DNA from: an uncultured Acidobacteriota bacterium
GTDB taxonomy: Bacteria; Acidobacteriota; Vicinamibacteria; Vicinamibacterales; CAVVIG01
Reading direction: 5' to 3'
Length of the DNA: 64,000 nucleotides
Assembly: GCA_963814975.1 (NCBI GenBank)
Contig: CAWFFB010000020.1
Span: 29,202 to 93,201 of the forward strand
Position 1 is the stretch's first letter. Each line of letters begins with the position of its first letter. This document shows, one piece after another, positions 12,760 through 37,052 of this stretch. The notes under the pieces were generated by a model that was not told the DNA's origin, did no database searches, and saw nothing but the letters and a program-made list of their open reading frames with translations. Both the position numbers and the translations under genes were made by a program.

Positions 12760-12830
12760 GCGCCCGAAGCCCCGAAGCACTCAAAGCCCCGAAGCCCCCA
12801 AGCACCCGAAGCACCCAAGCACCTAAGCAC
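12760..12830 (-). repeat. Array of about 9 degenerate 7-9 bp units (nnAGCACC), right arm, inverted relative to 12193-12301
   Basis: GC(A/C/G)C(C/T) cores at 12760, 12769, 12777, 12786, 12794, 12801, 12810, 12818 and 12826. Confidence 0.88.
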
Positions 12831-12850
12831 CTTTACCCCCTAGCCACCCT

Positions 12851-13279
12851 ATGCTTGTGCATACCGACTACCTCTGGTTCAACACCAAGAAGCGGCAGGA
12901 ATTCATCCGCATCACCGACGAAGTGGCCGCGGTCGTCAGCAAGAGCGGCGTCACGGACGGGACCGTGCTGGTGTCCGCCATGCACATCACCTCCGGCGTG
13001 TACGTCAATGACTGGGAGGATGGACTGATCCACGACTTCCAGACCTGGCTCGAGACACTCGCGCCGGCGGGCCTCAATTATCGGCATCATCAGACAGGCG
13101 AGGACAACGCCGATGCGCACCTCAAACGGACGATCATGGGCCATCAGGTCGTCTTGCCCATAACCAGCGGTAAGCTCGATCTCGGGCCGTGGGAGCAGGT
13201 GTTCTACGCGGAATTCGACGGCCAGCGCAAGAAGCGGGTCGTGGTCAAGGTGATGGGCATCTCGGGCCTTGAAACATGA
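12851..13279 (+). CDS. yjbQ: YjbQ / UPF0047 family protein
   Basis: Motifs [28 protein letters not shown] and [18 protein letters not shown]. Confidence 0.92.
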
Positions 13280-13713
13280 CCGATCTCAGGCACTATCCGG
13301 CGCGACCGATCGTGGGCGTCGGGGCGGTCATCCTCGACGGCCCGCGCGTCCTCCTGGTCAGGCGCGCGCATGAGCCGCTCAAAGGCGAATGGAGTCTTCC
13401 GGGGGGCGCCGTAGAGCTCGGGGAAACGCTCGAAACCGCGCTGGCGCGCGAAGTGATCGAGGAGACGGGTCTCGAAGTCGTGGTCGGACCGGTCGTGGAG
13501 GTCATCGATCGCGTGCAGCGCGCTCCCGACGGTCGCGTCGAGTATCACTTCGTGATCGTCGATTACCTGTGCACCGTTCGGGCTGGCGTCGCGGCGCACG
13601 GTTCGGATGCGTCGGATGTACGCTGGGTGCCCGTTTCGGAGTTGGCCGCTCACCAGGTGACCAGCAAAGCGATCGAAGTCATTCTGAAGGCCGTTGACCT
13701 CCAGGGGCGGTAG
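13276..13713 (+). CDS. NUDIX hydrolase
   Basis: Nudix box [23 protein letters not shown]. Confidence 0.93.
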
Positions 13714-15178: not shown

Positions 15179-15300
15179 GCCGCGTGCCGACGGATTGGTC
15201 ATCAGCCGCTCCTGAACTAAGATTCTGAGACGCTCGACGTTACCTCAGGAGCAGCGGTTCGGCCAAACCGCCGGCGCCGCTTTTCGCGCTTGATGACGCC

Positions 15301-15870
15301 ATGGAATTGACGCGCGCCGCCGCATGGCAATTGCTGACCGAGTACACCCGAAGCGACAGCCTGTTGAAGCACGCGCTCGCCGTCGAGGCCGCGGTGCGCG
15401 GTTACGCGCGCCAGTTCGCCGAGAACGAAGAGGAATGGGGCATTGTCGGGCTCCTGCACGATTTCGACTACGAGCGCTGGCCCAGCCTGGAGGATCATCC
15501 CTTTCGCGGCGCCGAGATTCTCAAGGAGAAGGGCTATCCCGAATGGGTGGTTCGCGCCATCCTGTCCCACGCCGATTACAGCGGCGTGCCGCGCGAGGGA
15601 CGCCTCGAGAAGACGCTCTTCGCCTGCGACGAGATGGCGGGGTTCGTCACGGCGGCCTCGCTCGTGCGCCCGAGCAAGAGCGTGCTCGACCTCGAATCGT
15701 CTTCGGTCGTGAAGCGGATGAAGGACAAGGCATTCGCCAAGGGCGTGAAGCGCGACGATCTGCGTGCCGGCGCCGAACTGCTGGGGCTCCCGCTCGACGA
15801 GCACATCCGCAACGTCATCACCTTCCTGCGCGAGCGGGCGGACGACCTCGGACTGCGTGGCAGCCTGTAA
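15301..15870 (+). CDS. HDIG / HD-domain metal-dependent phosphohydrolase
   Basis: Motifs KHALAVE, GLLHDFDYE, AILSH and LFACDE. Confidence 0.9.
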   Translation: MELTRAAAWQLLTEYTRSDSLLKHALAVEAAVRGYARQFAENEEEWGIVGLLHDFDYERWPSLEDHPFRGAEILKEKGYPEWVVRAILSHADYSGVPREGRLEKTLFACDEMAGFVTAASLVRPSKSVLDLESSSVVKRMKDKAFAKGVKRDDLRAGAELLGLPLDEHIRNVITFLRERADDLGLRGSL

Positions 15871-15890
15871 CCGGATCCTTCGAGCCCCTG

Positions 15891-16862
15891 GTGCCAGACA
15901 CCGACACTGAAGTTTCCGTTCGCGACCCGGTGGTGACGCTCGATGCCGTCACCGTGGCGTATGGTCGGCAGCCGGCGCTGCAGGAGGTGACCGCGTCCTT
16001 CGCCGCCGGCGCCGTCGGGTTGCTCGGACCGAACGGGGCCGGCAAGAGCACCATGATCAAGGCGCTGCTCGGCTTCATGGTGCCGGCCCGGGGACGCATC
16101 CAGGTCCTCGGGCTCGACGTTGCGGTGTCGCCGCTCGAGATCCGGAGGCGGGTCGGCTACATGCCCGAGAGCGACGCGCACATTCCCGGCATGAACGCCG
16201 TCTCCTTCGTGGCGTATTGCGGCGAATTGTCAGGACTCCCGCGCGCCGATTCGATCCAGCGCGCGCACGAAGCGCTGTTCTACGTCGGTCTCGGGGAGGC
16301 ACGCTATCGCAACGTGGAAACGTATTCGACCGGGATGAAGCAGCGCATCAAGCTGGCGCAGGCCCTGGTGCACGACCCGGATCTGCTGTTTCTCGACGAG
16401 CCCACCAACGGCATGGACCCCAAGGGCCGGGACGAGATGCTCGACCTGGTGTGCGACCTCGTGCGCGAGAAGGGCATCAACCTGGTTCTCTCGTCTCATC
16501 TGATGCCCGACGTCGAACGCACGTGCGATCACGTGATCGTCATGGATAAAGGACGGATCGCGGCACAGGGTTCGATTGCGGCCCTCAAGCAGGCGCGCGG
16601 GCGCGTCTACGAGTTGCGGGTGAAGGCATCGGCGGATTCCGTGACGGTGCCGATCTTCGTCGAACAGCTGCACGCGGCCGGCTTCGAGTGTCACGCCACA
16701 GACGACGACGTGATGCGGGTCTTCGTTCCTGGCGAGGGCGGCGCCCGCCAGTTGTTCGTGCTCGCCGCCGCGGCCGGCGTGCAGGTTCGTCACCTCCGCC
16801 CGAGTGTTCCGACGCTCGAGGACGTGTTCGCGAAAGCGGTTGGAGAGGCACAGGGCGGCTAA
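15891..16862 (+). CDS. ABC transporter ATP-binding protein
   Basis: Walker A GPNGAGKS, signature YSTGMKQR and Walker B LLFLDEP. The start is approximate (GTG 15891); the longer ORF extension overlaps the upstream gene. Confidence 0.92.
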   Translation: MPDTDTEVSVRDPVVTLDAVTVAYGRQPALQEVTASFAAGAVGLLGPNGAGKSTMIKALLGFMVPARGRIQVLGLDVAVSPLEIRRRVGYMPESDAHIPGMNAVSFVAYCGELSGLPRADSIQRAHEALFYVGLGEARYRNVETYSTGMKQRIKLAQALVHDPDLLFLDEPTNGMDPKGRDEMLDLVCDLVREKGINLVLSSHLMPDVERTCDHVIVMDKGRIAAQGSIAALKQARGRVYELRVKASADSVTVPIFVEQLHAAGFECHATDDDVMRVFVPGEGGARQLFVLAAAAGVQVRHLRPSVPTLEDVFAKAVGEAQGG

Positions 16863-16936
16863 CCACGAAGATTCAAAGCGCACGAAGCCTCATCGGGACG
16901 AATCGGTGCTTCGCGTTCGCTGTGGCTTCATGGGTT
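16861..16936. repeat. Intergenic imperfect palindrome, CACGAAG family
   Basis: AACCACGAAG...GCGCACGAAGC versus GTGCTTCGCGTTCGC...CTTCATGGGTT. Confidence 0.7.
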
Positions 16937-16970
16937 GGAGTCGGTGCGTTGAAAAGGTGTTCGAAACCGT

Positions 16971-17810
16971 ATGCCCATTCATGATCAAGGCTACCGCCGG
17001 TACGGTGGACGCCGCGTTCCGCTTGGGCGTGCGTGGGCGGTGATTGCGTTGGCCGGCATCCGTACCGTGCTCGGCCAACGCCGGTTCATCGGGCTGCTCA
17101 TTCTCGCGTGGATTCCCTTCGTCGTCCGCGCGGTGCAGTTTTATTTCGCGGTCAACCTGCCGCAAGCGGCGTTCCTGACGCCGACGGCCGGGACCTTCCG
17201 CGAATTCCTCGATCAACAGCAGATCTTCGTATTCTTCATTACCGTATCGGTCGGCGCCGGGCTCATCGCGAACGACCGGCGCGCCAACGCGCTCCAGATC
17301 TACCTGTCCAGGCCGCTGTCGCGATGGGAATACGTGGCCGGCAAGCTGGCCATCCTGATGGCGTTTCTTCTCCTCGTCACGTGGGTGCCGGCCATTGCGC
17401 TGCTCCTCGTCCAGGTGCTCTTCGCCGGAAACTTCGGTTTCTTTCGGACCAATCTCTACCTGTTTCCCGCGATCACCCTCTTCTCGTTCATCGAGGCGAT
17501 CATGATCGCCACCTCGATGCTCGCCCTTTCCTCGCTGTCGAACAGCAGCCGGTACGTCAGCATTCTGTATACGGCGCTCATCTTTTTCACGCCGGCGCTG
17601 TTCGGCGTCCTGCGGCTGGTCACTGGCAGCTCGGCGATCTCGTTGATGTCGTTCCCGGCGAACCTGCGTCAGGTCGGCAACGCCATTTTTCGTCTTCCCT
17701 TGCCGTACGACACACCGTGGGAGGTGTCGCTGCTGATGATCGTCGGCCTGATCGTCGGCTCCGTACTGATCCTCGAGCGTCGCGTCCGCGGCGTAGAGGT
17801 GATCGTGTGA
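16971..17810 (+). CDS. ABC-2 type transporter permease
   Basis: About 6 TM segments; motif GLIANDRRANALQIYLSRPLSRWEYVAGK. Confidence 0.88.
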   Translation: MPIHDQGYRRYGGRRVPLGRAWAVIALAGIRTVLGQRRFIGLLILAWIPFVVRAVQFYFAVNLPQAAFLTPTAGTFREFLDQQQIFVFFITVSVGAGLIANDRRANALQIYLSRPLSRWEYVAGKLAILMAFLLLVTWVPAIALLLVQVLFAGNFGFFRTNLYLFPAITLFSFIEAIMIATSMLALSSLSNSSRYVSILYTALIFFTPALFGVLRLVTGSSAISLMSFPANLRQVGNAIFRLPLPYDTPWEVSLLMIVGLIVGSVLILERRVRGVEVIV

Positions 17811-18736
17811 GCGAAGAGCGAGGGATCATCGAGGCGCAGAATGTCTCCAAATGGTACGGTCAGGTCATCGGTCTGAACGACGTCTCGATGAGCGTGCCCG
17901 CGGGTATCACCGGCCTTCTCGGGCCGAACGGCGCGGGCAAGTCGACGCTGATGAAGCTGATGACGGGCCAGCTGAAGCCGAGCCAGGGCCAGATCACCGT
18001 CCTCGGCGAGCGCATCTGGCAGAACCCCACCCTGTACTTCCGCATCGGGTTCTGCCCCGAGCAGGACGGGTTCTACGAGCGCATGACCGGCCTCGAGTGG
18101 CTGACGGCGCTGGTCCGGCTCAATGGCGCCGGCGACCGTGAGGCAGCCGAGATGGCCGCCCGCGCTCTCGAGCTCGTCGACCTCACCCCTGCCGCCGGAA
18201 AAAAGATCGGCGCGTACAGCAAAGGCATGCGGCAGCGTGTGAAGCTGGCGCAGGCGCTCGCGCACGATCCGGAGCTCCTGATCCTGGATGAGCCACTGGC
18301 GGGCATGGATCCGATCGCGCGCCGCAAGGCGATTCGGTTGATCAGGGACTGGGGCCGGTCGGGTAAGAGCGTCGTGGTCTCGAGCCACGTCCTTCACGAG
18401 ATTGAGTCGATGACGTCCAGTATCCTGCTGATGAATCAAGGACGGATCCTGGCCGAGGGGAACGTCCATCAGATTCGGGACCTCATCGACAGGCATCCCC
18501 ACACCGTCCACATCAAAGCGGACGAGACGCGCGCGCTGGCCCGAGAGTTTCTCGCCGCCGCCGACGTGCTCAGTCTGAAATTCGAGGATCAGGCGCTCGT
18601 GATTCAGACCTCGCGGCCTGACGCGTTCTATGCGCGGCTCACCGCCTATGCCGCCTCCGGTGAGTTCGGCGCAATTCATGAGATCACCTCGCCCGACGAC
18701 AACCTGCAGGCGGTCTTCCAGTATCTGGTGAAATGA
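17807..18736 (+). CDS. ABC transporter ATP-binding protein
   Basis: GPNGAGKS, YSKGMRQR and LILDEP. GTG start overlaps the previous stop (GTGA). Confidence 0.92.
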   Translation: MSEERGIIEAQNVSKWYGQVIGLNDVSMSVPAGITGLLGPNGAGKSTLMKLMTGQLKPSQGQITVLGERIWQNPTLYFRIGFCPEQDGFYERMTGLEWLTALVRLNGAGDREAAEMAARALELVDLTPAAGKKIGAYSKGMRQRVKLAQALAHDPELLILDEPLAGMDPIARRKAIRLIRDWGRSGKSVVVSSHVLHEIESMTSSILLMNQGRILAEGNVHQIRDLIDRHPHTVHIKADETRALAREFLAAADVLSLKFEDQALVIQTSRPDAFYARLTAYAASGEFGAIHEITSPDDNLQAVFQYLVK

Positions 18737-19581
18737 TGGCTCCGTCCCCGCCAGGCCGACCTGGCGTCCTGACGTCAGCGCTCAGGATTTTCGATCTGTC
18801 ACTCAACCAGATGCTCTGGTCGCGCCGGTCGGTGTTCCTGGCGCTCCTGGTTGGCGGGCCGGTACTTCTCGCCGCGGCCATCAGGCTGGCGACGGATCTG
18901 GCGCCCCTCTTTCTCCACGCCCGCAGGGATCCACCGATCGAGGGCGCGACGCTGTTTGGGATGATGATCTGGCTGCTGTACGTCCGCATCATCGTCCCGG
19001 TGCTGGGCGTCTTCTACGGCACGGCACTGATCGCGGACGAAGTCGACGACAAGACGATTACGTATCTGTTCACCCGTCCGATTCCGCGGCGCGCGGTCCT
19101 AATCGGTAAATACCTCTCGTACCTGGCGTGCACGACGCTGCTGCTGCTGCCATCGGTGGTCGCGGTGTATTTCCTCATCGTGCCCATCAACGAAGGCAGC
19201 ATTGGTCGATCATTCCCATTGCTGGTCGCGGATCTCGGGGTGCTCGTAGCCGGCTTGATTGCATACGGCGCGGTGTTCGCGCTGGTGGGCGCCAGGCTCA
19301 AGCGACCGTTGGTCCTCGGGCTGGTATTCGCATTCGGCTGGGAGCCGGGCGTCCTGCTGGTACCGGGCTACCTGAAGCGGGCCACCGTGGCGTATTATCT
19401 TCAGGCACTCCTCCCGCATGAGATGCCGCTGGACCCGGGGACGATCGGCGTCTTGACGCAGATGTTCGACCGATTTCCCTCCGCAACCGAGAGCCTCGCC
19501 TGGCTGGCGGCGGCGACCGTGAGTGCGCTCTGGCGGGCGAGCAGGGCCGTTGAGAATCGGGAATACGTGCTGGAACAGTAG
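18733..19581 (+). CDS. ABC-2 type transporter permease
   Basis: TM-rich; motif IADEVDDKTITYLFTRPIPRRAVLIGKY. Confidence 0.88.
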   Translation: MMAPSPPGRPGVLTSALRIFDLSLNQMLWSRRSVFLALLVGGPVLLAAAIRLATDLAPLFLHARRDPPIEGATLFGMMIWLLYVRIIVPVLGVFYGTALIADEVDDKTITYLFTRPIPRRAVLIGKYLSYLACTTLLLLPSVVAVYFLIVPINEGSIGRSFPLLVADLGVLVAGLIAYGAVFALVGARLKRPLVLGLVFAFGWEPGVLLVPGYLKRATVAYYLQALLPHEMPLDPGTIGVLTQMFDRFPSATESLAWLAAATVSALWRASRAVENREYVLEQ

Positions 19582-19615
19582 CGATCGCTGCATCGTCCAA
19601 GAACCTCGAGACCTC

Positions 19616-20605
19616 ATGACGTCCCGAACTCGAAATGTCGTGATCGCTTCGCTGCTGGTGGTGCTGGTCGGCCTGGGTACCGGTCTGGTCGCATATTATG
19701 TGGGCTTCCCGACCAGCGCGTTCTTCGCCGATGAAGGTCCCGATGAGCTCCGCTTCGTGCCGGCGGATGCGACCCTTGTCGCATTCGGGAACGTGCACGA
19801 GATCATGACCTCCGACGTGCGCGAGCGCGCCCGGCGCGCGTTGCCGCGTCTGCCAAGAGGTCAGGAACAGTTTCGCGCCGAAACAGGGATCGACGTCGAA
19901 ACGGATATCGACCGCGTGGTCGCGTGCCTCAGTCGTCCCGGCGTGGACGCCCCGACCGCTGGCCTGGTCCTCGCCCGCGGGCGGTTCGATGCGGGCAAGA
20001 TCGAGTCGCTGATGCGGGATCATGGCGCGACCGTCGTCGACTATCGAGACGTGCGCCTCATCACGGGCGCTGCGTCGTCGGCTCATCCCGGCGGTCTGTC
20101 TCTCGGGTTCATCGAACCAGGTCTCGTCGCGGTCGGCAGCGCGGCGTTGGTCCGGAGCGCCATCGACCTGAAACACGGCGGCAGGGGCATCACGACCAAC
20201 GACGACATCATGAATCGCGTCAGGTCGCTCGACGCCGGCGATGCCTGGGTCGTTGGCCGGTTCGAGGCGCTTTCCTCCCAGGCGAACCTTCCGCGCGGCC
20301 TGGCCGCGCAGCTGCTCCCCATTACATGGGTTTCGGCAACCGCCCACCTCAATGGCGGGTTGCAGGGCGTATTGCGTGCGGAGACGAGTGACGAGGCGTC
20401 CGCGACCACCCTGCGAGACCTGGTACGCGGGTTCCTGGCGTTCGCGAAGCTGAAGGCGGGTTCGAGGCCAGAGATCCAGACCCTTGTGCAGTCGGTGAAC
20501 CTCGGTGGTACCGGGACCACTGTGACACTCTCGTTCAGCCTCCCCTTGGAGATCTTCGACCTGTTAGGGACCGCGATGGGTCACGATATCGTGAAACCGC
20601 GCTGA
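19616..20605 (+). CDS. Membrane-anchored hypothetical protein (DUF3352-like by appearance)
   Basis: N-terminal TM helix (VVIASLLVVLVGLGTGLVAYY) followed by a soluble alpha/beta domain; co-oriented with the ABC genes. Confidence 0.7.
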   Translation: MTSRTRNVVIASLLVVLVGLGTGLVAYYVGFPTSAFFADEGPDELRFVPADATLVAFGNVHEIMTSDVRERARRALPRLPRGQEQFRAETGIDVETDIDRVVACLSRPGVDAPTAGLVLARGRFDAGKIESLMRDHGATVVDYRDVRLITGAASSAHPGGLSLGFIEPGLVAVGSAALVRSAIDLKHGGRGITTNDDIMNRVRSLDAGDAWVVGRFEALSSQANLPRGLAAQLLPITWVSATAHLNGGLQGVLRAETSDEASATTLRDLVRGFLAFAKLKAGSRPEIQTLVQSVNLGGTGTTVTLSFSLPLEIFDLLGTAMGHDIVKPR

Positions 20606-20716
20606 CGCGGGCGGCTGCCGACAGCCTCGCTTCGTAGTTTTTCTCTCTCCGGAACCTTCGCCACTTCTTCTCTCCGGTAAATGGAAGCGCCCCCCAATCC
20701 GTAATTCGGAATACCG

Positions 20717-21118
20717 ATGACAGACCTGGTGTTCTTTTACGGCACTCTCATGAGCGGCTTCAGCCGGCCCGGCCGCTCGACCCTCGATCGGATCCTGGTG
20801 CCCGTGGGCCGCGGGTGGATCGGCGCCGCACTGTTCGATCTCGGTATCTATCCCGCCGCTATCCCTGCGAGCGACAGCCGTGTTTGGGGCGAGGTGTATC
20901 AGATGCTGGATGCCGACGCCGTTCTAAGCTCGACCGATGAGCTCGAAGGAGTCAATCCTACCGAGTCCGACTCCAGCCTCTACACCCGCGCGGAAACCCT
21001 CGTCACGTTGGAGGATGGGCGTGCGATCACCGCTTGGGTCTACTTCTACAATGCCCCCCTGGGACGGGCCGAGCGTATTGCCTCCGGCGATTACCGCGAG
21101 CATCTGAAGGCAAAATAG
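20717..21118 (+). CDS. Gamma-glutamylcyclotransferase (AIG2-like) family protein
   Basis: Motifs VFFYGTLM, YPA, VWGEVY, DELEG and AWVYFY. Confidence 0.9.
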   Translation: MTDLVFFYGTLMSGFSRPGRSTLDRILVPVGRGWIGAALFDLGIYPAAIPASDSRVWGEVYQMLDADAVLSSTDELEGVNPTESDSSLYTRAETLVTLEDGRAITAWVYFYNAPLGRAERIASGDYREHLKAK

Positions 21119-21358
21119 CCACACTCCGCCACGTCGAAAGCCGCGCGATAGCCGGATAGGATAGGAAGGAAGTACGTCGTCACTGCGGTGAAAACCGCTG
21201 TAGGGGGAACTTCTGCGGTCGCCTGCCCAACTTCAGATAGGCTCCGGACGAATGTGCAGATGCGCCGATGACGCGGACGAGGGAGGTCCAGCGGACGCGG
21301 CATGCCCAGCTGCCTGCACTCGCCGATCTTTTCCATGCTTGCCGGGTGTGAACGATCT

Positions 21359-21742
21359 CTAGCCGGTGCGGCGGCCGTCCTTGATGGCGTCGATGAACTC
21401 GGCAATCACCGAGTAAACTCGGTCCGACAACTCGATGAATTCGACGCCGGAACGGTAAGTGACGAACTCCTGGTCGACGTCGCTGATGCTGCAATGGACG
21501 ACCCGGCCCTTGACGACGATAGAGCGGTCGCCCAGGGTAAGCCGCAGTTCGTGCAGTGAGTCCAGCTGGAGGCGAAACGCGGTCTCGACCTGGGCGCCTC
21601 CGCAGCCCAGCTCCTTGATGGCCATTGGCTCGAACACCATGACCTCGCCGTGGAGCTCCCCCAGAATCTCGAGGCGCTCGCTGTCGCGTGTGTTGTCGAG
21701 ATCTGGCTTGGAATCTCCCGGCGTCGCCGGGTCGCGCACCAT
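21359..21742 (-). CDS. PilZ domain protein
   Basis: RDSER (RxxxR) followed by IKELGCGGAQVE and VKGRVVH beta-barrel pattern. Confidence 0.82.
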   Translation of the reverse strand: MVRDPATPGDSKPDLDNTRDSERLEILGELHGEVMVFEPMAIKELGCGGAQVETAFRLQLDSLHELRLTLGDRSIVVKGRVVHCSISDVDQEFVTYRSGVEFIELSDRVYSVIAEFIDAIKDGRRTG

Positions 21743-21788
21743 GCGACCCGGACTATATCACGAGGGGATTCGGCGAGCCGGTCGCCGG

Positions 21789-22203
21789 TCAGTTCATGCG
21801 TAGAGCAGGCTTGGGGGTAAACATCTCGCCATCCGAGAAATCCGTGGACGTCCCCATCGGCGTCGTGGCCTTCATGCTCGTTCGCGTAGGTCAGGACAGG
21901 GATCCCGCGCGTTTCGTCGTCCAGCTTCAACATCGACAGAACCTGGAAGCCGTCCATCTCCTCGATCCGCACGCAAAGGATGACGAGGTTTGGCTGCACA
22001 CGCTTGATTTGCGAGTAGGCGTGGTCGTTGGATTCCACGAACACGATGTCGTAGCGCCCGGCGTCGAGCGCCGTCTCGAGCAACTCCAGGATTTCGGAGC
22101 TGCCGTTGACGATGACTACCTTCTGGGCGCTGGCTCCCGGCGCGATACCAGACCCTCGAAGGTTTGAAAGTGTGACGCCTGTAGTTACGCCATTCGTCAG
22201 CAT
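21789..22203 (-). CDS. Atypical single-domain response regulator receiver (frameshifts in the 3' tail)
   Basis: KVVIVNGS...NLVILCVRIEEMDGFQVLSMLKLDDETRGIPVLTY is a receiver fold. An alternative frame gives ...TDFSDGEMF..KPALRMN-stop at 21789. Confidence 0.78.
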
Positions 22204-22237
22204 CTCTAGTCCGTCTCCATCGGACGCTGACAGGTAA

Positions 22238-22253
22238 TTCAGGAACCGTGCCA
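22238..22253 (-). promoter_or_regulatory. Possible sigma54-type -24/-12 promoter variant
   Basis: TGGCACG-GTTC-CTGAA on the minus strand about 35 nt upstream of the receiver gene. The -12 element deviates from the TTGC consensus. Confidence 0.3.
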
Positions 22254-22427
22254 GGCAGGCGGCATCAGAATGTCCATGTTTTCAGGAGTTCGTGAAGGCG
22301 GGGGAGCAGGCTTCGGGCTGATGACCACGGAAGGGGGCACTAGTGACGATGACGGAACCTGTTCTGCGGCAGAGGTTTCGACACACGGTTGCGCGCCGTG
22401 TCTGCAGTACGGCAATCTCGGTGACAT

Positions 22428-27447: not shown

Positions 27448-27560
27448 AGTCTCAAGGCCCAGTCTCAAGTTTCAAGACTGGAACCCAAGCCCACAGCCCA
27501 AAGTCTCAACGTTCAAGGTGTGTGCGCTTCCTGAGACGTGAGCCCTGACACTTGAGAGTT
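27448..27560. repeat. Heptamer-periodic intergenic element (TCTCAAG-like)
   Basis: GTCTCAAG, GTTTCAAG and GCCCAAG-type units on the left; CTGAGAC, GTGAGCC and CTTGAG inverted units on the right. Confidence 0.65.
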
Positions 27561-27575
27561 TGTACAATATGCAAT

Positions 27576-28181
27576 ATGAAAGATCTCATCACGCGTCTCC
27601 TCGTGGAGCTTGGCGAAGACCCGAATCGGGAGGGGCTGCTCAGGACGCCGGTCCGGGTCGAGAAGGCACTCCGATTCCTGACGAGCGGGTACGGCGCGAA
27701 CGTCGACGCCGTGCTCAACGATGCCCTGTTCACCGTCGACTACAGCGAGATGGTGATCGTCAAGGATATCGACTTCTACAGCCTGTGCGAGCATCACCTG
27801 CTACCGTTCTTCGGCAAGTGTCACATCGCTTATATCCCCAGCACTCACGTGATCGGACTGAGCAAGATCCCCCGGCTGGTGGATGTATTCAGCCGACGCC
27901 TGCAGATCCAGGAGCGGCTGACGAACCAGATCGCGGACACCATCCGCGAGAAGATCTCGCCGATCGGCGTCGCCGTCGTCATGGAGGCCACTCATCTCTG
28001 TATGTCGATGCGCGGCGTCGAGAAGCAGAACTCCTTCGCGGTGACGAGTGCCATGCTCGGTGCGTTCCGCAGTAATGCGCGGACACGCATCGAGTTTCTC
28101 GAGCTCATCAAGCTCCGCAGCGCCATCCCCGGCCTCCGCGGCGACACCGCGGCGAGCCTGGCCTGTGTCGGCGAGGATTAG
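27576..28181 (+). CDS. folE: GTP cyclohydrolase I
   Basis: Motifs [38 protein letters not shown] and HLCMSMRGV. Confidence 0.97.
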
Positions 28182-28182
28182 A

Positions 28183-28243
28183 CGTTCTGCGTTCTGCGTT
28201 CTGCGTTCTCCGTTCGGCGTTCTCCGTTCGGCGTTCGGCGTTT
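28183..28243 (+). repeat. Heptamer tandem array CGTT(CTG/CTC/CGG) x9
   Basis: Units at 28183, 28190, 28197, 28204, 28211, 28218, 28225, 28232 and 28239. Confidence 0.9.
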
Positions 28244-28306
28244 GCGTGCACGAAGGCTGAACGAAGGGCGCCGCACGTCGCACGGAAAAGTACTATACTG
28301 AGAGTG

Positions 28307-28996
28307 ATGCGCCGCGTGCTTCTCGTTGTGCTGGCGTCGCTGCTGGCGGTACCGCTCGTCGCGCCCGCCCAGACGCGACGGCCGCCGGCGAAGCGCACGC
28401 CGCCACCGCCGCCTCCTCCTCCTGCGCCACCGACGAAGACCGTCCCCGAGATCAAGTGCCCGACGCCCCTGGGCGTTGGTGTCAGTTCGAAGCGCGACTA
28501 CTGCGATGTGATGAGCGGCCGCGATCCCGCGGAGGGTGTCCTGATTGTGCTGCCGCCGCATCAAGGACCGGTGACGCTCACCTTCGACCTGCACAATCGC
28601 CATACCTATTCAGAAGAGCAAGTGAAGGCCAATCGCGCATCCGCGCGCTATACTGCGGTAATCGGCGCGCTGACGATGGATAACACGCTGATCAGCCGGG
28701 CGGCGGTGCAAAGCGAGTTCAGGAAGGCGTCGGACCTGGTCGAGCGCATCGGCGGCGGGGCCGGCCCCGGCGGGGTCAAGGCGGTCGCGCCGACCGGCAC
28801 CGAAGCCATCACCATCACGATTCCGGAGGAGGAAACACAGGTCAGTCTTCTGGGCGAAAAGCTGATCATCGACCGCCCGGATGGCACCGCCGCGTACACG
28901 TCGCCAGGACGTCCGATCGCCGTCATCAGCAACGTGGCGATCGAATACCGGCCCCCGCCTCCTCCGCGCCCTGCCCGGGGACGAACGTCGCGCTGA
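28307..28996 (+). CDS. Exported proline-rich hypothetical protein
   Basis: Signal peptide (MRRVLLVVLASLLAVPLVAPA), poly-Pro linker and a beta-rich domain with two Cys. Confidence 0.75.
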   Translation: MRRVLLVVLASLLAVPLVAPAQTRRPPAKRTPPPPPPPPAPPTKTVPEIKCPTPLGVGVSSKRDYCDVMSGRDPAEGVLIVLPPHQGPVTLTFDLHNRHTYSEEQVKANRASARYTAVIGALTMDNTLISRAAVQSEFRKASDLVERIGGGAGPGGVKAVAPTGTEAITITIPEEETQVSLLGEKLIIDRPDGTAAYTSPGRPIAVISNVAIEYRPPPPPRPARGRTSR

Positions 28997-29084: not shown

Positions 29085-31199
29085 CTACACCTCAGGCTTG
29101 TGCAGCACGGGCTGAACGTCCGTCTTTTTCTTGGGCCCACCGAGTCCCTGAATCTTCAGCGTGGGCTGCTCCTTGAGCACGTGCTGGGCGTACAGCTTCG
29201 CCATCTCGGCGTTGTAGGCGGCTTCCTTCGCGAGATCCTCCGCCGACTTGTGCTTGCGCGCCGCCAGCTTTTCTTCGCGGGCGTTCTTCGCGATGCCGAG
29301 AGCGTCGAGGTCCGTCTGGGCGCCGGCGCGCACCGCTTCCTCGTTCAGCTTCAGCGAATGTGCCGTTGACGGCAGATCCACCGCCTTGCCGCCGGCGAAG
29401 ATCTCGTGGCGGCCGTGCTCGTCGTACCACTTGGTGAGCGTCGCCGTCATGTGCATCTTCTCGATGATGTTTCGCCACCCGATGCCGGTGTTGTAGGCGC
29501 AGAAGGAGATCTCGCCCTGCTGCGTGGCATAGGGGATGATGCACATTTCGGTGCGGCGGAAATCGTAGTTGAACAGATCCTGGAACCACATGCCGGCGAT
29601 GAAGAGGAAATTCCAGCGATCGGCCCGGCGCTTGGCAATGTCGTCGATCGTCCGATCTCCCTCGACCCTGCCGTATTTGCCCTTCTCGGCGGACTTGGTC
29701 GCGCCGAAGGTCTTGTCGAACTTCTTCAGCAGATCCGACAGCTTGAAATGCGTGGGCGACTTGAACGAGTCGTAGTTCCGGACGACCGCAAGCGCCATGC
29801 CCAGGACCGAGAGGAATCGGCCGCGGCCGGCGTCGCTGACCGCAGCCACGTCCTTGGCGAGCTGCTCGGCCTTCAGGAATGCGGTAACCGGCACCGCTTC
29901 CTTCGTTTCCTTGTCGATCATGATGGCCATGCCGACACCGCAGTTGGGGTGGCAGCCACAGGTCAGTTGTCCGAATTCCTTCTCGGCGCCGTGCGTCACG
30001 TCCGCCCAGTCGGTGAAGCTGCCCATGAAGGAAATCGGGAACCAGTCGCGGATCGGCTCGCCGATGCCGGTCTGGTTCTTCACGTCGTGCGCCAGGTGCG
30101 ACAGCGTATAGCGCTGCGCGGCCCGGCGCTCAGGCGTCACCTCCTCGTCCCGCCCCGTGAACGACACCGGCTGGAACGAGAGGAAGTTGATCTTCTTGGG
30201 GTTGTCGAGCGCGAACTCGATGATGCGCCCGACCTGCTCGTTGTTGACGCCGTTCACGATGGTGACGACCGGCACGATGTCGACGCCCGCGCTGTACAGG
30301 TTCTCGATGGCGCGAAGCTTGACGTCGAAGAGGTTGCCGACACGGCGGTGGGCGTTGGCGGCGTTTCCGATGCCGTCAAACTGCAGATACGCGTAGCGGA
30401 GTCCGGCTTCGGCAGCCGCCCGGGCGAAGTCCGGGCTCTTGGCGAATTCGATGCCGTTGGTCGCCGCCTGGACGCTGTTGTACCCGACCTTGCGCGCGTA
30501 TCTCACCGCGTCGAGAAAGTGCGGCGAAATCGTCGGCTCGCCTCCCGAGAACTGCACCGACATCTGCCGTCTGGGCTTGATGCTGATGGCGTTGTCCAGC
30601 ACCGTCTTGATGTCGTCCCAGGTGAGCTCGTGGACGAACCCGACCTGGTTCGCATCCATGAAACAGGGGTCGCACATCATGTTGCAACGGTTCGTCAGAT
30701 CGACCGTGAGCACCGATCCGCGGCCGTGCTTGATGGTGCTGCTGCCGTGGTTGTGCAGCTTCTCGTCGTTGTGCGCGCGGATGTCGCGTCCCGGGAACAC
30801 CTCTTCGAGATGCTTGAAGAAGGCCGGGTCGATCGCCATCACGTCCTCGAAATGACCGTGAATGGGGCAGTCCTTGACCATCAGGATCTTGCCGTCGCGC
30901 TCGAGAATCGTGGCTTTGATCTCGCCGACTTTCTCGTTCAACAGCACGCTGACGTCTTTCTTGCCGTCGAGAATCGCCTGCCGCGCCTCGCGCGTGCAGG
31001 TCGGGCAGAGCGAGTCGGTCTCGCGCGGCCAGCCGAGCGGTGGCTTCGTCTTCTGATATGACTTGAGCAGCGGCTTGTCGGACCATTTCGGTGTGAACGA
31101 GGGCCGCTGATTGATCTTGTTCAACCCGCTGAAGACGACCCAGGCGCCATTGGCGGCTACCGCTAGACCCTTTTCGACGTATTTGATAGGCGCGTGCAT
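29085..31199 (-). CDS. Radical SAM protein, tetraether synthase (Tes / MJ0619, GDGT-MAS) homologue
   Basis: SLCPTC...KDCPIHG rubredoxin-like site, DLTNRCNMMCDPCF, QFSGGEPT, ATNG, YLQFDG, FQPVSFTGR, CGCHPNC and CIIPYAT...FCAYN. ATG 31199 has a GGAGG RBS. Confidence 0.88.
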   Translation of the reverse strand: MHAPIKYVEKGLAVAANGAWVVFSGLNKINQRPSFTPKWSDKPLLKSYQKTKPPLGWPRETDSLCPTCTREARQAILDGKKDVSVLLNEKVGEIKATILERDGKILMVKDCPIHGHFEDVMAIDPAFFKHLEEVFPGRDIRAHNDEKLHNHGSSTIKHGRGSVLTVDLTNRCNMMCDPCFMDANQVGFVHELTWDDIKTVLDNAISIKPRRQMSVQFSGGEPTISPHFLDAVRYARKVGYNSVQAATNGIEFAKSPDFARAAAEAGLRYAYLQFDGIGNAANAHRRVGNLFDVKLRAIENLYSAGVDIVPVVTIVNGVNNEQVGRIIEFALDNPKKINFLSFQPVSFTGRDEEVTPERRAAQRYTLSHLAHDVKNQTGIGEPIRDWFPISFMGSFTDWADVTHGAEKEFGQLTCGCHPNCGVGMAIMIDKETKEAVPVTAFLKAEQLAKDVAAVSDAGRGRFLSVLGMALAVVRNYDSFKSPTHFKLSDLLKKFDKTFGATKSAEKGKYGRVEGDRTIDDIAKRRADRWNFLFIAGMWFQDLFNYDFRRTEMCIIPYATQQGEISFCAYNTGIGWRNIIEKMHMTATLTKWYDEHGRHEIFAGGKAVDLPSTAHSLKLNEEAVRAGAQTDLDALGIAKNAREEKLAARKHKSAEDLAKEAAYNAEMAKLYAQHVLKEQPTLKIQGLGGPKKKTDVQPVLHKPEV

Positions 31200-31563
31200 T
31201 CGTGTCGCCTCCTGTACAAGTGCGCCCGGGCGCGAAGCGCCCACGCGACTTTGACGCCAAATCATAGATGAGAAAAGAAATGCCGGGCACGATTTTCGGC
31301 CAACGGGCGATCGAGGCCGGTGAGCGGGCAGATACGAGGTTGGATGGCCCGCTCATCCGAGGGCGGCGCAACCCCGCGCCGGATCCGATCCCGATGGCGG
31401 CGGCACGCGATCGACATCCACCGGGTAAGGATCGACAAGCGCATGGAGCCCGCTGCGTCGGCGTGAGTGAAAGCCAAGCCTCGCGTCCCGATTGTGAACG
31501 CCCGGCGGCGCTGAGTGGCTGGTCATGCAGACGAATCTCCGTCGCGGACACTAGAATGGCTCA

Positions 31564-32568
31564 ATGTCGGTACGCGATCTGATCATCGTCGGCGCGGGGC
31601 CGTCGGGCCTCTCCGCCGCGATTGCCGCTAAGCGGCGCGGTCTGGATTACCAGGTTCTGGAGCAGGGCATCCTGGTCAACTCGATCCATCGATTTCCGCC
31701 CCAGATGGTCTTTTTCACGACACCGGAACTGCTGGAGGTGGGCGGTCTCCCCTTCGTGTCTCCCTACGAGAAGCCGACGCGGATCGAGGCGTTGCGCTAT
31801 TACCGGCGCGTGGTCGATACCTTCGATCTGCAGATCGCGTTCGGGGAGACAGTGCTCTCGATCCAGGCGGAAGAGGACCCGGAGAGCGGCGGGGGCGGCG
31901 CTGACCGCCGGGTGTTCGCGATCGAGACCGGGTCGGGCGGCGGTCGCCGGATCCGGCATGCGCGTACCGTCGTGCTCGCGATTGGCTACTTCGATCGGCC
32001 CAACCTGCTGAACGTGCCTGGCGAGGACCTCCCGCATGTTCATCATTTCTATGGTGAGCCGCATCCGTACTACCGGCGGCGCGCGATCGTGGTTGGCGGC
32101 GGCAACTCGGCGGCGGAATCGGCGCTCGACCTGTACCGCGCCGGCGCCGCGGTGACGCTCGTCCACCGCCGGGCGGAACTCAAATCCACGATCAAGTACT
32201 GGGTCCGGCCGGACATCGAGAACCGGATCAGGGAGGGGTCGATCGCCGCGCGGTTCAACTCATGCGTGACGGAAATCAAGGCGGCTGCGGTCGTGGTGAG
32301 GACGGAAACGGGCCTGGAGGAGCTGGCTGCGGACGAGGTGTTTCTGCTCGTCGGCTACCACGCGGACTGGGAGTTGATGGCCGCTGCCGGTGTCGCGATG
32401 AACGAGCGACGTGCGCCCGTCTTCGATCCATCGACCTTCGAGACCAACGTGTCCGGCCTCTTCGTGGCCGGCGGCGCGCTCGCCGGCATGGACACGGGCA
32501 ACATCTTCATCGAAAACGGCAGGTTTCACGGCGAAAAGATCGTCGAGGTGATCGGCGCCCGCCTGTGA
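31564..32568 (+). CDS. ypdA: YpdA-family flavin disulfide reductase (putative bacillithiol disulfide reductase)
   Basis: Motifs GAGPSG, FFTTPELLEVGG, KPTRIEALRYY, GGGNSA, WVRPDIENRI and FIENGRFHG; no CxxC. Confidence 0.88.
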   Translation: MSVRDLIIVGAGPSGLSAAIAAKRRGLDYQVLEQGILVNSIHRFPPQMVFFTTPELLEVGGLPFVSPYEKPTRIEALRYYRRVVDTFDLQIAFGETVLSIQAEEDPESGGGGADRRVFAIETGSGGGRRIRHARTVVLAIGYFDRPNLLNVPGEDLPHVHHFYGEPHPYYRRRAIVVGGGNSAAESALDLYRAGAAVTLVHRRAELKSTIKYWVRPDIENRIREGSIAARFNSCVTEIKAAAVVVRTETGLEELAADEVFLLVGYHADWELMAAAGVAMNERRAPVFDPSTFETNVSGLFVAGGALAGMDTGNIFIENGRFHGEKIVEVIGARL

Positions 32569-32651: not shown

Positions 32652-33284
32652 CTAGTGGGCGACGTTGGAGACCCCCGGCGTGCGGGCGATCATGATTTTC
32701 ATCTCGAGGAGTTCGACCAGCGCTTCGGCGCGTGTTCGCAGGCTGTCGTGTTCGAGCAGCGCCTGCTTTTCGAGCGGATCGAGGTCGAGATACTGGCCGA
32801 GCGCGTTGATCAGATCTTCGTCGGCCAGCGCCGCGGTGGTGTTCGGATCGGCGCCGGCTTTTTCGACGGCGGGCGCCAGCAGCGCTTCGAGCTTCGATCG
32901 CTGCCTGCTGATGGCGTCGCGATCTTCGGGCCGCAGCGGTGCCTGCGTCAACGACTCGACCTGGGCGCGACGGTAGCGCCGCGCGTGATCCTCCCGTACG
33001 ATGCGGACACGCTCGACGCCTCGCAAGACGATGTTGTAGCGGCCGTCGTCAAGGCGGTCCACGTGAGTGATGACGCCGCTGCACCCGATCGGATAGACCG
33101 GCGGCCGTCCCTCGTAACTTCCCTCCCATTTCGGCTGGAGCAGGACCATCGCAATCAACCGGTCGCTCTTCAGGGCGTCTGCGATCATCTCGCGATAGCG
33201 CGGCTCGAAGATGTGCAGCGGCAGAAATACGTTCGGGAAGAGCACAACGTTCGGGAGCGGGAACAGGGGCAGCAGGTCGGACAT
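32652..33284 (-). CDS. LON peptidase substrate-binding (N-terminal) domain protein
   Basis: Motifs LPLFPLPNVVLFP, LHIFEPRY and DGRYNIVLRG; no ATPase or protease domain. Confidence 0.92.
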   Translation of the reverse strand: MSDLLPLFPLPNVVLFPNVFLPLHIFEPRYREMIADALKSDRLIAMVLLQPKWEGSYEGRPPVYPIGCSGVITHVDRLDDGRYNIVLRGVERVRIVREDHARRYRRAQVESLTQAPLRPEDRDAISRQRSKLEALLAPAVEKAGADPNTTAALADEDLINALGQYLDLDPLEKQALLEHDSLRTRAEALVELLEMKIMIARTPGVSNVAH

Positions 33285-33367
33285 ATCTGCGATTTCGTGA
33301 CTTGGTGATCGACGACCTCTCAGTGGATTCGGGGATAGATTGGGATCACCAAATCGTCGATTGAAGA

Positions 33368-34651
33368 TCAGTGGATCGTCTTCGTCTTCTTGTCCATGTA
33401 GTCCATGAGCACGTATTGACCGAGCGTGTACGGCGTCGTGAAATAGGCCTTCCCCTTGCAGATCTCGGCGACGCGGCGCACGAAGCTGACCAGATCGTAA
33501 TCGCGCGCCAGCATGAACGTATTGATCATGATGCCGCTCTTGCGGCACGCGGCCACCTCGGCGCAGGTTTCAGCGACGATGAAGGGATCGAGGCCGAAGG
33601 CGTTCTTGTAAATCCGGCCATCGGGCTGGGTGAGCGCGGAGGGCTTGCCGTCGGTGATCATGATGATCTGCCGCATGTCCTTGCGCTGTCGATCGAGGAT
33701 ACGCCGCGCCAGCCGGAGTCCCTCGCGCGTGTTGGTGTAGTAGGGACCGACCCGGACGCGGCCGAGCTCGGCGAGCGGAATCTCTTCCGCCGAATCGTGG
33801 AAGAGCACCACCTTCAGCGCGTCGCCGGGGTACTGATGCTTGATCAGCTGCGCCAGCGCCAGCGCGACCCGTTTGGCGGGCGTAAAGCGATCCTCGCCGT
33901 ACAGAATCATGCTGTGGCTGCAGTCCAGCATCAGGACCGTCGCGCACGAGCTCTGATACTCGCCTTGGACGACCATCAGATCCTGATGGGTGACCCGAAT
34001 CCGGCTGGGAGCCGGCGGATCCGCGCCCGCCTCGCGCGCCTCGCGTGCCTCACGCTGTACCGCATTCAACAGCGTGCTTGCCGGATCGAGATTGAGCGTG
34101 TCTCCGAAGTGGTACGCCTTCGGGGCGCCGGTGGTCTCGATGCCTGTCGCCTGCTCGCGGGTGTCGTGGCGGCCGAAGCTGCTCTTGCCGAGTGAGCCCA
34201 GCAGGTCGCGCAGGGCGCGGTAACCAAGGAAATCGAGTGTCTTGTCGGTGACTTCGAAATGCACCGGCGGCTGTTCACGACCGTCGCCGCGGTTGCCGCG
34301 GTGCTCGCGCTCGGCGTCGAGGTCCGGCGGTGCGGTGATGTATCCCTGCTCGCCCATGCGCTCGATGATTTGCTGGATCAGCTCTTCGAGCTTCGATCGG
34401 GCGTCCGCCTGATCGCCGTCGGCGGGGTCGCCGAGCAGCTTCTCAATCGTTTCCTCCGGCAGCACCCCGCCGTTGAAGAGCGCGTCGAGGATCGCGTCGT
34501 GCAGCGCCTGCATGGTCCGCTCGTCGTCGTCCATCGCGTACGGGCTGCCGAACCCGCTCGACAGCAGCAGGTCGGACAGCTTCGCGACCAGATCTTCGAG
34601 ATCCAGCTCATCGAGCGCATCGCCGGTGAATCTGGTGTAGCGGTATTTCAT
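33368..34651 (-). CDS. VWA domain-containing protein
   Basis: MIDAS-like DCSHSM, plus YTNTREGL and MITDGKPS. Confidence 0.92.
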
Positions 34652-34716
34652 GTCGAGTGCTCGACGGATCGATTCAGGCTGTCGACGTCAGCAGCCGAGA
34701 CCCTGAAGCCCATCAC

Positions 34717-36216
34717 CTAGTTGTAGTACTTCTTCTTGCCGCCAGGCAGCCGGATCTCTTCCTCGACCGTCTGGTCCTCGCGGCGCGAGGGGCGGCGCGC
34801 CGCAGGCTCGGTGCCGGCGGCGTAACCGCGTTCGTCGCTGCGGCTGATCTTCTTCTGCGCGTACAGGCCTTCGAGGATGAAATCAATCGCCGAGGCGACG
34901 GCCGGAGCGGGCGCGCCCGCGCCGATCCCGAGGTGTCTGAGCAATTCGGGGAGGCCCTGCAGACCCCGCGTCAAATTGATCACCTCGTCTGCCGACGTCA
35001 CGTCGCTCAGCGGGAGAGAGCCGCCCAGGTCGAACCATTCGACGACCGTCCGGGGGTCGACGCCGTCGAAGGTGCCGGTGAAGATGGCACCGACGGCTGA
35101 GCGGATGAGATCGCGGGCCACCTGCTCCGCGCCGCGCAGCTCCCCTTCGTACTCGAGCTCGAACTTGCCCGTGATGGACGGCAGCGCCGCGTACAGATCG
35201 GTCACGCGCGGCACGACGGCCTGCTCGCCAAGGGCCAGCGCGCGGCGTTCGGCGTTCGAGACCACGAGTTCCAGCGTCGTGATGGGCAGACGCTGGCTCA
35301 CGCCCGACCGCTTGTCGATCTTGCGGTCGGCGCGGGCCTGGAACGCCACCTCTTCGACGACCTCGCGGACGTAGGCCGGAATGTCAATCGGCGGCCCCCC
35401 GGCGCGCGCCGTCCACGCCTCTTGCGCCGTGATCGCGAGGGCGTGCTGCCGCGTGACCGGGTAGTGCGTCCGGATCTCCGATCCAATGCGGTCCTTGAGC
35501 GGCGTGATGATCTTGCCCCGCGCCGTGTAGTCCTCCGGATTCGCCGTGAACACCAGCATCACGTCGAGTCTCAATCGGATGGGATACCCCTTGATCTGGA
35601 CGTCCCCTTCCTGCAGGATGTTGAACAGTCCAACCTGAATCTTGCCAGCGAGATCGGGCAGCTCGTTGATCGCGAAGATGCCGCGATTCGCCCGTGGCAG
35701 CAGGCCGTAGTGCATCGTGAGCTCGTCAGCCAGGTTCAGGCCCGCCTGGGCGGCCTTGATCGGATCGATGTCGCCGACCATGTCGGCGATCGTCACGTCG
35801 GGCGTTGCCAGCTTCTCCACGAATCGGTCCTCGCGGCGCAGCCAGCCGATCGGCAACCGGTCGCCTTCCTTCGCAATCCGGCCGCGGCAGGCGCCGCAGA
35901 TCGGCGCCATCGGATCGTCGTGGATCTCGCAGCCCGGTACGATCGGGATCTGTTCATCGAGCAGATCGATCAGCCCGCGGAGGATGCGGCTCTTCGCCTG
36001 GCCGCGGAGACCGAGCAGGATGAAATTGTGCCGCGAGAGGATGGCGTTCACGAGCTGCGGGATGACGGTGTCGTCGTAACCGATGATGCCGGGGAACAGC
36101 GGCTCTCCCGACCGCAGCTTCCGAACGAGGTTGTCGCGAATTTCCTGCCTGACCGGTCGCGACCCGGCGCCGCGCTGCTTGCGCAGGTCGCCGAGCGTCT
36201 TGATGGGATCCGCCAT
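34717..36216 (-). CDS. Magnesium-chelatase-like AAA+ ATPase
   Basis: Walker A variant GLRGQAKSR; motifs [30 protein letters not shown] and GVSQRL. Confidence 0.92.
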
Positions 36217-36248: not shown

Positions 36249-37052
36249 GTGGGGCATCCTTTCTTCGAGTCGAGGCGTCCGCTGGTCTTCGCCCACCGCG
36301 GCGGCGCCGCGCTCGCGCCGGAAAACACCCTCGCGGCGTTCGACCACGGCGTGGCGTCCGGTGCCGACGGCCTCGAGCTCGACGTCCGCCTCTCGCGCGA
36401 CGGAGTCGTGGTCGTGCACCACGATCGCACGCTGGAGCGGACGACGAACCTTCGCGGGACGGTGGCGAACGCCACCGCCGCCGAGCTCGCCCGGGCCGAC
36501 GCCGCGCATCATTTCACGCGTGGCGGTACCCGGCCGTTCCGTGGTCTGGGCTTTGGAGTGCCGACCCTGGCGTCCGTGCTCGCGCGGTACAAGGACCATC
36601 GTCTGATCGTCGAGATGAAGGAAGACAGCTCCGAGCTGGCGCGCGCCGTAGTCGAGACCATCCGGTGCGCGGACGCGATCGACCGCGTATGTCTCGGGTC
36701 GTTTGGCCTGCGCGCGCTGCGCGCGGCCCGCTCGCTGGATGCGGCTGTCGCGACCAGCGCCGCGCGCGAAGAGGTTCGCTGGGCGCTGTATCGATCCTGG
36801 TGCCGCTGGCCGGTGTCGCGCGTCGCCTATGCGGGCTATCAGGTTCCCGAAACCTCCGGGGTCACGCGTCTCGTCTCCCCTCGGTTCGTGGAGCATGCGC
36901 ACCGCTCGAACCTTGGGGTCCAGGTCTGGACCGTGAACGCCGAGCGTGACGCCCGCCGGCTGCTGGGCTGGGGTGTTGACGCGTTGATTACCGACAGACC
37001 TGACGTGATGGTGCCGCTGATCCGGCCGGGGGGCTCGAGACCTGAAACCTGA
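36249..37052 (+). CDS. Glycerophosphodiester phosphodiesterase
   Basis: Motifs FAHRGG, PENT, ELDVRLSRDG, VHHD, WTVN and ITDRPD. Confidence 0.94.
   Translation: MGHPFFESRRPLVFAHRGGAALAPENTLAAFDHGVASGADGLELDVRLSRDGVVVVHHDRTLERTTNLRGTVANATAAELARADAAHHFTRGGTRPFRGLGFGVPTLASVLARYKDHRLIVEMKEDSSELARAVVETIRCADAIDRVCLGSFGLRALRAARSLDAAVATSAAREEVRWALYRSWCRWPVSRVAYAGYQVPETSGVTRLVSPRFVEHAHRSNLGVQVWTVNAERDARRLLGWGVDALITDRPDVMVPLIRPGGSRPET

Follow-up and report, generated by a model that had tools for sequence, protein, structure and literature searches.

A Tes-like radical SAM enzyme lacking one auxiliary cluster as a candidate source of membrane-spanning lipids in Acidobacteriota

A 64,000-nucleotide stretch of DNA from an uncultured soil bacterium of the Vicinamibacterales (Acidobacteriota; contig CAWFFB010000020.1 of assembly GCA_963814975.1, positions 29,202 to 93,201), referred to here as the window, carries a gene (Table 1) for a relative of the tetraether lipid synthase Tes, the radical S-adenosylmethionine (SAM) enzyme MJ0619 or GDGT-MAS of M. 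jannaschii (GDGT, glycerol dialkyl glycerol tetraether). The gene is best explained as encoding a three-cofactor variant of this enzyme, termed type B. By analogy with MJ0619, its most likely function, put forward with moderate confidence, would be tail-to-tail coupling of iso-branched acyl chains to give membrane-spanning lipids of the iso-diabolic acid type.

The protein matches Pfam models Zn_ribbon_HMPTM (PF23545, 1.6e-13) and Radical_SAM (PF04055, 1.5e-18; 68 bits against a gathering cut-off of 29.5, with the CX3CX2C motif), and its best NCBIfam model is that of tetraether lipid synthase Tes (NF045702, 2.6e-92). The best solved structure by sequence is GDGT-MAS (PDB 7TOL, E 1.7e-63), to which the protein is 32% identical over 458 columns. 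An AlphaFold2 model built on a mixed alignment of the two family architectures described below (predicted local distance difference test (pLDDT) score 80.9; predicted template-modelling (TM) score, pTM, 0.84) matched 7TOM/7TOL in Foldseek with E 1e-35 and a target-normalised TM score of 0.86 over ~560 columns, so that all four domains of the MJ0619 fold are shared. GDGT-MAS was the only full-length structural match; the next, MoaA (TM 0.51), covered the radical SAM core alone. The lipid-binding domain is present in the model and predicted with confidence. Sequence, fold and catalytic residues therefore agree that the protein belongs to the MJ0619/Tes (GDGT-MAS) superfamily, as had been read from the motifs of the translation: CPTC (65-68), CPIH (111-114), CNMMCDPC (172-179), FQPVSFTGR (342-350), MCIIPYAT (552-559) and FCAYN (566-570). 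Both the motifs and the coordinates of the gene were confirmed, and the matches are not attributable to chance.

The same motifs had been said to define the Tes family. They hold for the superfamily, but the protein is not an equivalog of the characterised Tes enzyme: it scores below the curated cut-off of the Tes model, lacks the ligands of one cluster and is separated from MJ0619 by a branch with 100/100 support. The model for the radical SAM (seleno)protein TrsS (NF045646) reached 211 bits against a cut-off of 490, over the N-terminal ~290 residues only. The NCBI pipeline uses 'tetraether lipid synthase Tes' for the archaeal-type proteins termed type A below and merely 'radical SAM protein' for the type found in the window. 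The closest database proteins, 85 to 92% identical, are from Vicinamibacterales and other Acidobacteriota; the host had rightly been called a probable acidobacterium.

Two architectures were distinguished in an alignment of full-length family representatives. Type A proteins are MJ0619-like: their rubredoxin linker is short, and they have a CPxxCGxCxxH motif, whose residues C73, C77, C80 and histidine in MJ0619 bind the N-terminal auxiliary [4Fe-4S] cluster (Lloyd et al., PMC9433317). Type B proteins, including that of the window, have a 23-residue insertion in the rubredoxin domain and, at the site of the cluster, a cysteine-free, histidine-rich loop (NDEKLHNHGSSTIKHGRGS in the window protein). 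In a larger alignment the N-terminal cluster cysteines were found in none of 78 orthologues of the window protein and in all 139 type A proteins; the window residues aligned to the MJ0619 ligands are a gap, a gap, Ser154 and Lys157. The lost cluster lies on the protein surface in MJ0619 and has no assigned catalytic role (PMC9433317).

The remaining functional sites are retained. On the basis of the alignment, C172, C176 and C179 correspond to the radical SAM cysteines of MJ0619, F180 to Phe106, Q343, S346 and R350 to Gln268, Ser271 and Arg275 of the SAM lid, C420, C553 and C567 to the C-terminal cluster cysteines, M537 to the labile Met439 and Y557 to the invariant Tyr459, each in 78 of 78 orthologues; the rubredoxin-type CX2C...CX2H site is likewise shared with MJ0619. 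All residues that Lloyd et al. tied to catalysis are thus, by alignment, invariant in type B. An extra cysteine, Cys414, is type-B-specific and also invariant. Other differences from MJ0619 are ~57 additional N-terminal residues that include a helix, possibly a membrane-surface anchor, and ~115 additional C-terminal residues. A strongly conserved block, MHMTATLTKWYxxHGRHEIFAG (residues 582-603), spans the boundary between the last domain and this C-terminal tail. The tail is also found in orthologues from other classes; its helices at residues 640-673 were modelled with low confidence. The hosts differ too, since that of the window protein is a bacterium with ester-linked fatty-acid lipids.

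A maximum-likelihood tree (IQ-TREE, LG+C20), from which a mis-extracted open reading frame (ORF; L129) and a frameshifted representative (P0240) were left out, placed a 100/100 branch between type B, the clade of the window protein, and type A, with MJ0619 and the above-cut-off acidobacterial proteins on the type A side. The window protein sits inside a 100/100 clade of very short-branched acidobacterial orthologues, and not with non-lipid radical SAM clades, the grouping that would have spoken against a lipid role.

In a scan of species-representative genomes at least 597 relatives were found. The best 80 are 75 to 96% identical over the full 700 residues and come from metagenome-assembled genomes (MAGs) labelled Vicinamibacterales, Bryobacterales, Terriglobales/Acidobacteriaceae, Terracidiphilus, Ca. 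Angelobacter, Ca. Sulfopaludibacter, Ca. Acidiferrales and Blastocatellia. The gene is thus unexceptional within a very large group of orthologues that spans Vicinamibacteria, Terriglobia and Blastocatellia, classes corresponding to subdivisions reported to make iso-diabolic acid (PMC13159169). Across 401 evenly sampled Acidobacteriota genomes a homologue of any kind was present in 250 and the conserved orthologue (best E ≤ 1e-190, our own tally) in ~195. Among the 38 other genomes from the order of the window, matches were found in 37 and reached orthologue level in 36.

Above-cut-off type A proteins were found in 45 of the 401 genomes, and a clean gap separates their scores on the Tes model (455 to 619 bits) from those of type B (≤ 352). 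The two types co-occur less often than expected (both in 9 genomes, A only in 36, B only in 186; odds ratio 0.23, Fisher p = 5e-5, uncorrected for phylogeny), and this partial exclusion fits a shared functional niche. Acidobacterial type A proteins, labelled Tes by NCBI in Terriglobales and Ca. Korobacteraceae, share phylum, family, catalytic residues and a proposed role in brGDGT (branched GDGT) or spanning-lipid synthesis with type B; unlike type B, they retain all four cofactor sites. By score, the homologues in Ca. Koribacter and S. usitatus stressed by Zeng 2022 and Chen 2022 are probably of the type A kind.

Sequence conservation of the type B orthologue is extreme. At 59 loci from other classes the gene is 74.5 to 80.3% identical to that of the window, whereas for the 164 flanking genes with a counterpart in the genome of the window the median is 44% and the highest value 74.4%. 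As the gene exceeds every one of these neighbours, purifying selection on it is unusually strong. That it spread recently within the phylum is a less parsimonious alternative, because presence within orders is near-universal and single-copy.

Some members of the wider set call for separate mention. Three MAGs labelled Betaproteobacteria, 'uncultured proteobacterium' and Bifidobacteriaceae (L014, L015 and L021) have copies of 82 to 96% identity; L014 and L015 keep Vicinamibacterales-type synteny, and the most likely explanation for the three contigs is mis-binning or mislabelling, not horizontal transfer. Terriglobus roseus DSM 18391 has a divergent type B homologue (WP_014786616.1, 42% identical; L090/L091 9001-10875) inside a conjugative/integrative element with genes for a TrwC relaxase, two integrases, a TraG/TrwB coupling protein, ParA and a replication protein; some family members therefore ride on mobile DNA. 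In G369 (Terriglobales; L134 5097-7262 and 10879-12579), and also in G234 and G145, a type B orthologue and an above-cut-off type A gene lie on the same strand, 4 to 6 kb apart. An operon of the two types in one Terriglobales genus was considered and ruled out, as an opposite-strand gene for a BNR/sortilin-repeat protein intervenes.

In the proposed reaction, the radical SAM [4Fe-4S] cluster would cleave SAM and the 5'-deoxyadenosyl radical would abstract hydrogen from a lipid tail bound in a hydrophobic pocket, at its terminal (iso-propyl) carbon. The C-terminal auxiliary [4Fe-4S] cluster would hold the substrate radical as a C-S adduct until a second tail, activated by another SAM, attacked the adduct carbon and formed a C(sp3)-C(sp3) bond. 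In an acidobacterium the tails would be the iso-C15 acyl chains of ordinary phospholipids, and the product would be iso-diabolic-acid-type membrane-spanning lipids, the core of brGDGTs. Coupling is favoured because the catalytic residues and the fold are intact, the taxa match, conservation is extreme, type A is partially excluded and a paralogue has a lipid context (see below). It is favoured also because phytanyl and iso-C15 tails share an identical iso-propyl terminus and because MJ0619 can bind ester-linked phosphatidic acid (Lloyd et al., PMC9433317). A precedent for the chemistry is Mss of Thermotoga and Thermoanaerobacter, a radical SAM enzyme for which the joining of two fatty-acyl tails to diabolic or iso-diabolic acids is experimental (Sahonero-Canavesi 2022). 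Mss is just remotely related to Tes and, unlike type B, is known from anaerobes only; mss has been reported absent from Acidobacteria (Sahonero-Canavesi 2022).

If the tails were instead those of pre-formed iso-C15 diethers, the enzyme would be a true tetraether synthase making brGDGTs, and subdivision 6 would be a soil source of them (for example, of the 6-methyl isomers in neutral to alkaline soils). The fold and catalytic residues are the same as those of Tes, a diether condensation route via Tes homologues has been proposed by Halamka et al. (PMC10087280), and Chen et al. (2022) point specifically to the Tes-bearing subdivisions 4 and 6 as candidate sources of 6-methyl brGDGTs. Several B12-binding radical SAM proteins in the genome could also serve as lipid methylases; none of the five such ORFs passes a Grs- or HpnR-specific cut-off. 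Nevertheless, this reading is improbable in view of the ether step. No PlsA/Ger-type gene (Pfam DUF2229; the Thermotoga control was positive), no NAD_binding_4 protein of ElbD size and no Tes above the equivalog cut-off was found in the genome, which therefore has no recognisable ether-forming enzyme. Moreover, among the 401 genomes none from the order of the window reaches E 1e-100 on the Tes equivalog model, and the homologue highlighted in S. usitatus, a prolific brGDGT producer, is much more similar to archaeal Tes (40%, 1e-139) and by its score would be type-A-like. Ether-linked brGDGT production by this organism is thus unsupported, the ger homologue that the sequence-only reading proposed to look for being among the genes not found. 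With no known ether-bond route in the genome, ester-bound spanning lipids are favoured over brGDGTs proper, barring an unknown ether pathway. That the organism makes membrane-spanning lipids at all stays plausible, with homology, phyletic pattern and chemical analogy as its whole basis.

A second alternative is a different radical reaction on a hydrophobic substrate, such as intramolecular macrocyclisation, cross-linking or C-S chemistry on another lipid or a polyprenyl compound. The deepest split of the family separates type B from every characterised member, and type B falls below the equivalog cut-off; it has lost one cluster and gained C414, the 582-603 block and the tail. No lipid genes lie near the window copy, and bacterial homologues are found in organisms not known for biphytanyl chains (Lloyd et al., PMC9433317). 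Against this, the residues for SAM cleavage and for the cluster of the C-S adduct are all invariant, and the taxa that carry type B match the makers of iso-diabolic acid. MJ0619 itself yields macrocyclic and spanning products from one active site, so that this alternative, which we consider unlikely, though the likeliest of those weighed against acyl-chain coupling, partly overlaps with it.

Several observations weigh against acyl-chain coupling. On the Tes equivalog model the window protein reaches 310 bits, short of the curated cut-off of 450; with this shortfall and a missing cofactor, its chemistry could differ from that of Tes. No bacterial Tes homologue of any type has demonstrated activity (PMC11868695). 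Of 14 Acidobacteria that produce iso-diabolic acid, only 3 had Tes homologues under the stringent criteria of Sahonero-Canavesi et al., who favoured an alternative pathway; type B, at its level of identity to MJ0619, may narrowly miss their filter of 30% and 1e-50. No homologue was detected in 151 of the 401 Acidobacteriota genomes, the co-occurrence test takes no account of phylogeny, and unbiased clustering of flanking ORFs gave no family present at more than 11 of 80 related loci.

Genomic context bearing on lipids was found elsewhere in the genome. A second type B paralogue of 641 amino acids, 61% identical to the window protein, is encoded on contig C30 and scores 321 bits on the Tes model, also below the cut-off. 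Its cluster (~9600-22300; L008 7626-20000) comprises genes for a Crp-family regulator, the paralogue, an AMP-forming acyl-activating enzyme directly upstream of it, the membrane protein YdjM, an LpxL-family acyltransferase, a GT2 glycosyltransferase and, 9 kb from the paralogue, an HpnR-like B12-binding radical SAM protein (218 bits, below the HpnR cut-off). The arrangement partly recurs in three of four other genomes with the paralogue or a related copy (G425, G447 and G436): the acyl-activating enzyme is adjacent in two of these, and the third has genes for the acyltransferase, the GT2 and the HpnR-like protein. The cluster could be a dedicated lipid-modification island for coupling, methylation and glycosylation. 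It is the sole context evidence that ties type B to lipid metabolism, and it concerns the paralogue, not the window gene. P0122 was tried as a stand-in for the paralogue and rejected, since its context is that of a positional orthologue of the window gene.

Taken further, type B may be the long-sought iso-diabolic acid synthase of Acidobacteria: a streamlined Tes derivative, with two [4Fe-4S] clusters and the rubredoxin iron, whose substrates in these aerobic soil bacteria would be phospholipids with ester-linked iso-C15 chains. Roughly half of the phylum, the abundant subdivision 6 of neutral to alkaline soils among them, would then owe the C30 spanning core of brGDGTs to this enzyme, with type A as its equivalent in mostly non-overlapping lineages. 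This wider proposal is a tentative one. Acidobacterial Tes homologues as makers of brGDGT-type lipids have been in print since 2022 (Zeng, PMC8941075; Halamka, PMC10087280; 10.1101/2022.04.07.487437); in the literature searched, no description was found of two types, one archaeal-type (A) and one hyper-conserved and devoid of the N-terminal cluster (B), or of their largely complementary distribution. brGDGTs are among the most widely used terrestrial proxies of past temperature and pH, and in Acidobacteria the enzyme behind their membrane-spanning chain is still sought, as are most producers. The family is a concrete, testable candidate, with the right chemistry, very strong constraint and presence in reported iso-diabolic-acid subdivisions, including Vicinamibacterales, which Chen et al. 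flagged for 6-methyl brGDGTs. If the proposal is right, the gene would be a marker for producers in soil metagenomes, and Tes chemistry would work without the N-terminal cluster and in aerobes.

The features of the gene and its surroundings are collected in Table 1. The uninterrupted ORF extends over 29085..31265 on the reverse strand, and the true start, as first proposed, is the ATG at 31199, because AGGAGG lies 8 nucleotides upstream and all close homologues begin with MHAPIKY. A sigma-70 promoter scan gave no match. The hairpin beyond the stop codon is a pattern match only, such patterns being no more numerous than in shuffled sequence.

Table 1. Positions of the Tes-like gene, its domains and adjacent features in the window
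Feature	Position	Strand	Basis
Complete coding sequence, Tes-like type B radical SAM enzyme, 704 amino acids plus stop	29085..31199	-	ORF translation; Pfam, NCBIfam and PDB matches; homologues share start Met
Shine-Dalgarno AGGAGG, 8 nt (31200-31207) 5' of ATG 31199	31208..31213	-	read from sequence
N-terminal helix, residues 3-27, moderately hydrophobic, amphipathic; no MJ0619 equivalent	31119..31193	-	AlphaFold2 pLDDT 87-94; hydrophobic moment 1.0
Rubredoxin-like zinc-ribbon domain, residues 58-122 (C65, C68, C111, H114); 23-residue insertion relative to type A	30834..31028	-	PF23545; alignment; ligands in 78/78 orthologues
His-rich, Cys-free segment NDEKLHNHGSSTIKHGRGS, residues 144-162, in place of [4Fe-4S]N motif CPxxCGxCxxH	30714..30770	-	alignments; low model confidence here
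Radical SAM core, residues 163-355; CX3CX2C at C172/C176/C179	30135..30713	-	PF04055
SAM-lid motif FQPVSFTGR, residues 342-350	30150-30176	-	Q343/S346/R350 = MJ0619 Gln268/Ser271/Arg275
C-terminal lipid-binding/auxiliary [4Fe-4S]C domain, residues 356-590: C420, M537, C553, Y557, C567 and type-B-specific C414	29430..30134	-	residue mapping; 100% conservation; fold matches 7TOM/7TOL
Type-B-specific C-terminal tail, residues 591-704; distal part Ala/Lys/Glu-rich, helical, less conserved	29088..29429	-	conservation profile
Terminator-like hairpin, 12-bp stem (10 G-C), then T-run; 29 nt past stop codon	29029..29056	-	pattern match only
YpdA-family putative bacillithiol disulfide reductase, divergent; 390 bits, above cut-off	31564-32568	+	NCBIfam
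folE, GTP cyclohydrolase I, ~0.9 kb beyond 3' end of Tes-like gene	27552-28181	+	
folE and 230-residue Pro-rich, Pfam-less secreted protein, co-directional pair converging on Tes-like gene	27552-28996	+	

The window copy is effectively a stand-alone gene, with ypdA divergent, the genes for the Pro-rich secreted protein and FolE convergent, and genes for a thiolase and a 3-hydroxyacyl-CoA dehydrogenase among its neighbours. In the 80 related loci folE recurs in nine, the Pro-rich protein in 12 and ypdA in four, in the closest relatives only. Within Vicinamibacteria the trio of folE, Pro-rich gene and Tes-like gene can be followed as far as an orthologue of 63% identity (L089). A relative with 88% identity has an unrelated gene in the convergent downstream position. 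As these partners are kept only in the nearest relatives, the neighbourhood was rejected as a functional clue and regarded as incidental synteny.

The folE pairing is notable in light of the original label of MJ0619, 7,8-dihydro-6-hydroxymethylpterin dimethyltransferase, which many homologues still bear in Joint Genome Institute (JGI) annotation. On this reading the enzyme would modify pterins and be functionally linked to folE. However, Lloyd et al. could not corroborate methylase activity and found the hydrophobic lipid pocket incompatible with a pterin (PMC9433317), and the protein has no methyl-donor (B12) domain. folE is convergent with the gene and separated from it by another, with synteny limited to the closest lineages. 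A pterin role is therefore very improbable and the pairing was judged incidental.

Elsewhere in the genome, a radical SAM (seleno)protein with a CUAEP/CCAEP tail is encoded at C14:558472-559920 (624 bits against an NCBIfam cut-off of 500) and ends in WYCCAEPNPEQVALV. Beyond ypdA in the window, a same-strand trio (32652-36216, reverse strand) encodes a chelatase/MoxR-like AAA ATPase with weak BchI/CobN-type matches, a VWA-domain protein and a LON substrate-binding-domain protein, and this run is followed by a gene for a glycerophosphodiester phosphodiesterase (36249-37052, forward strand).

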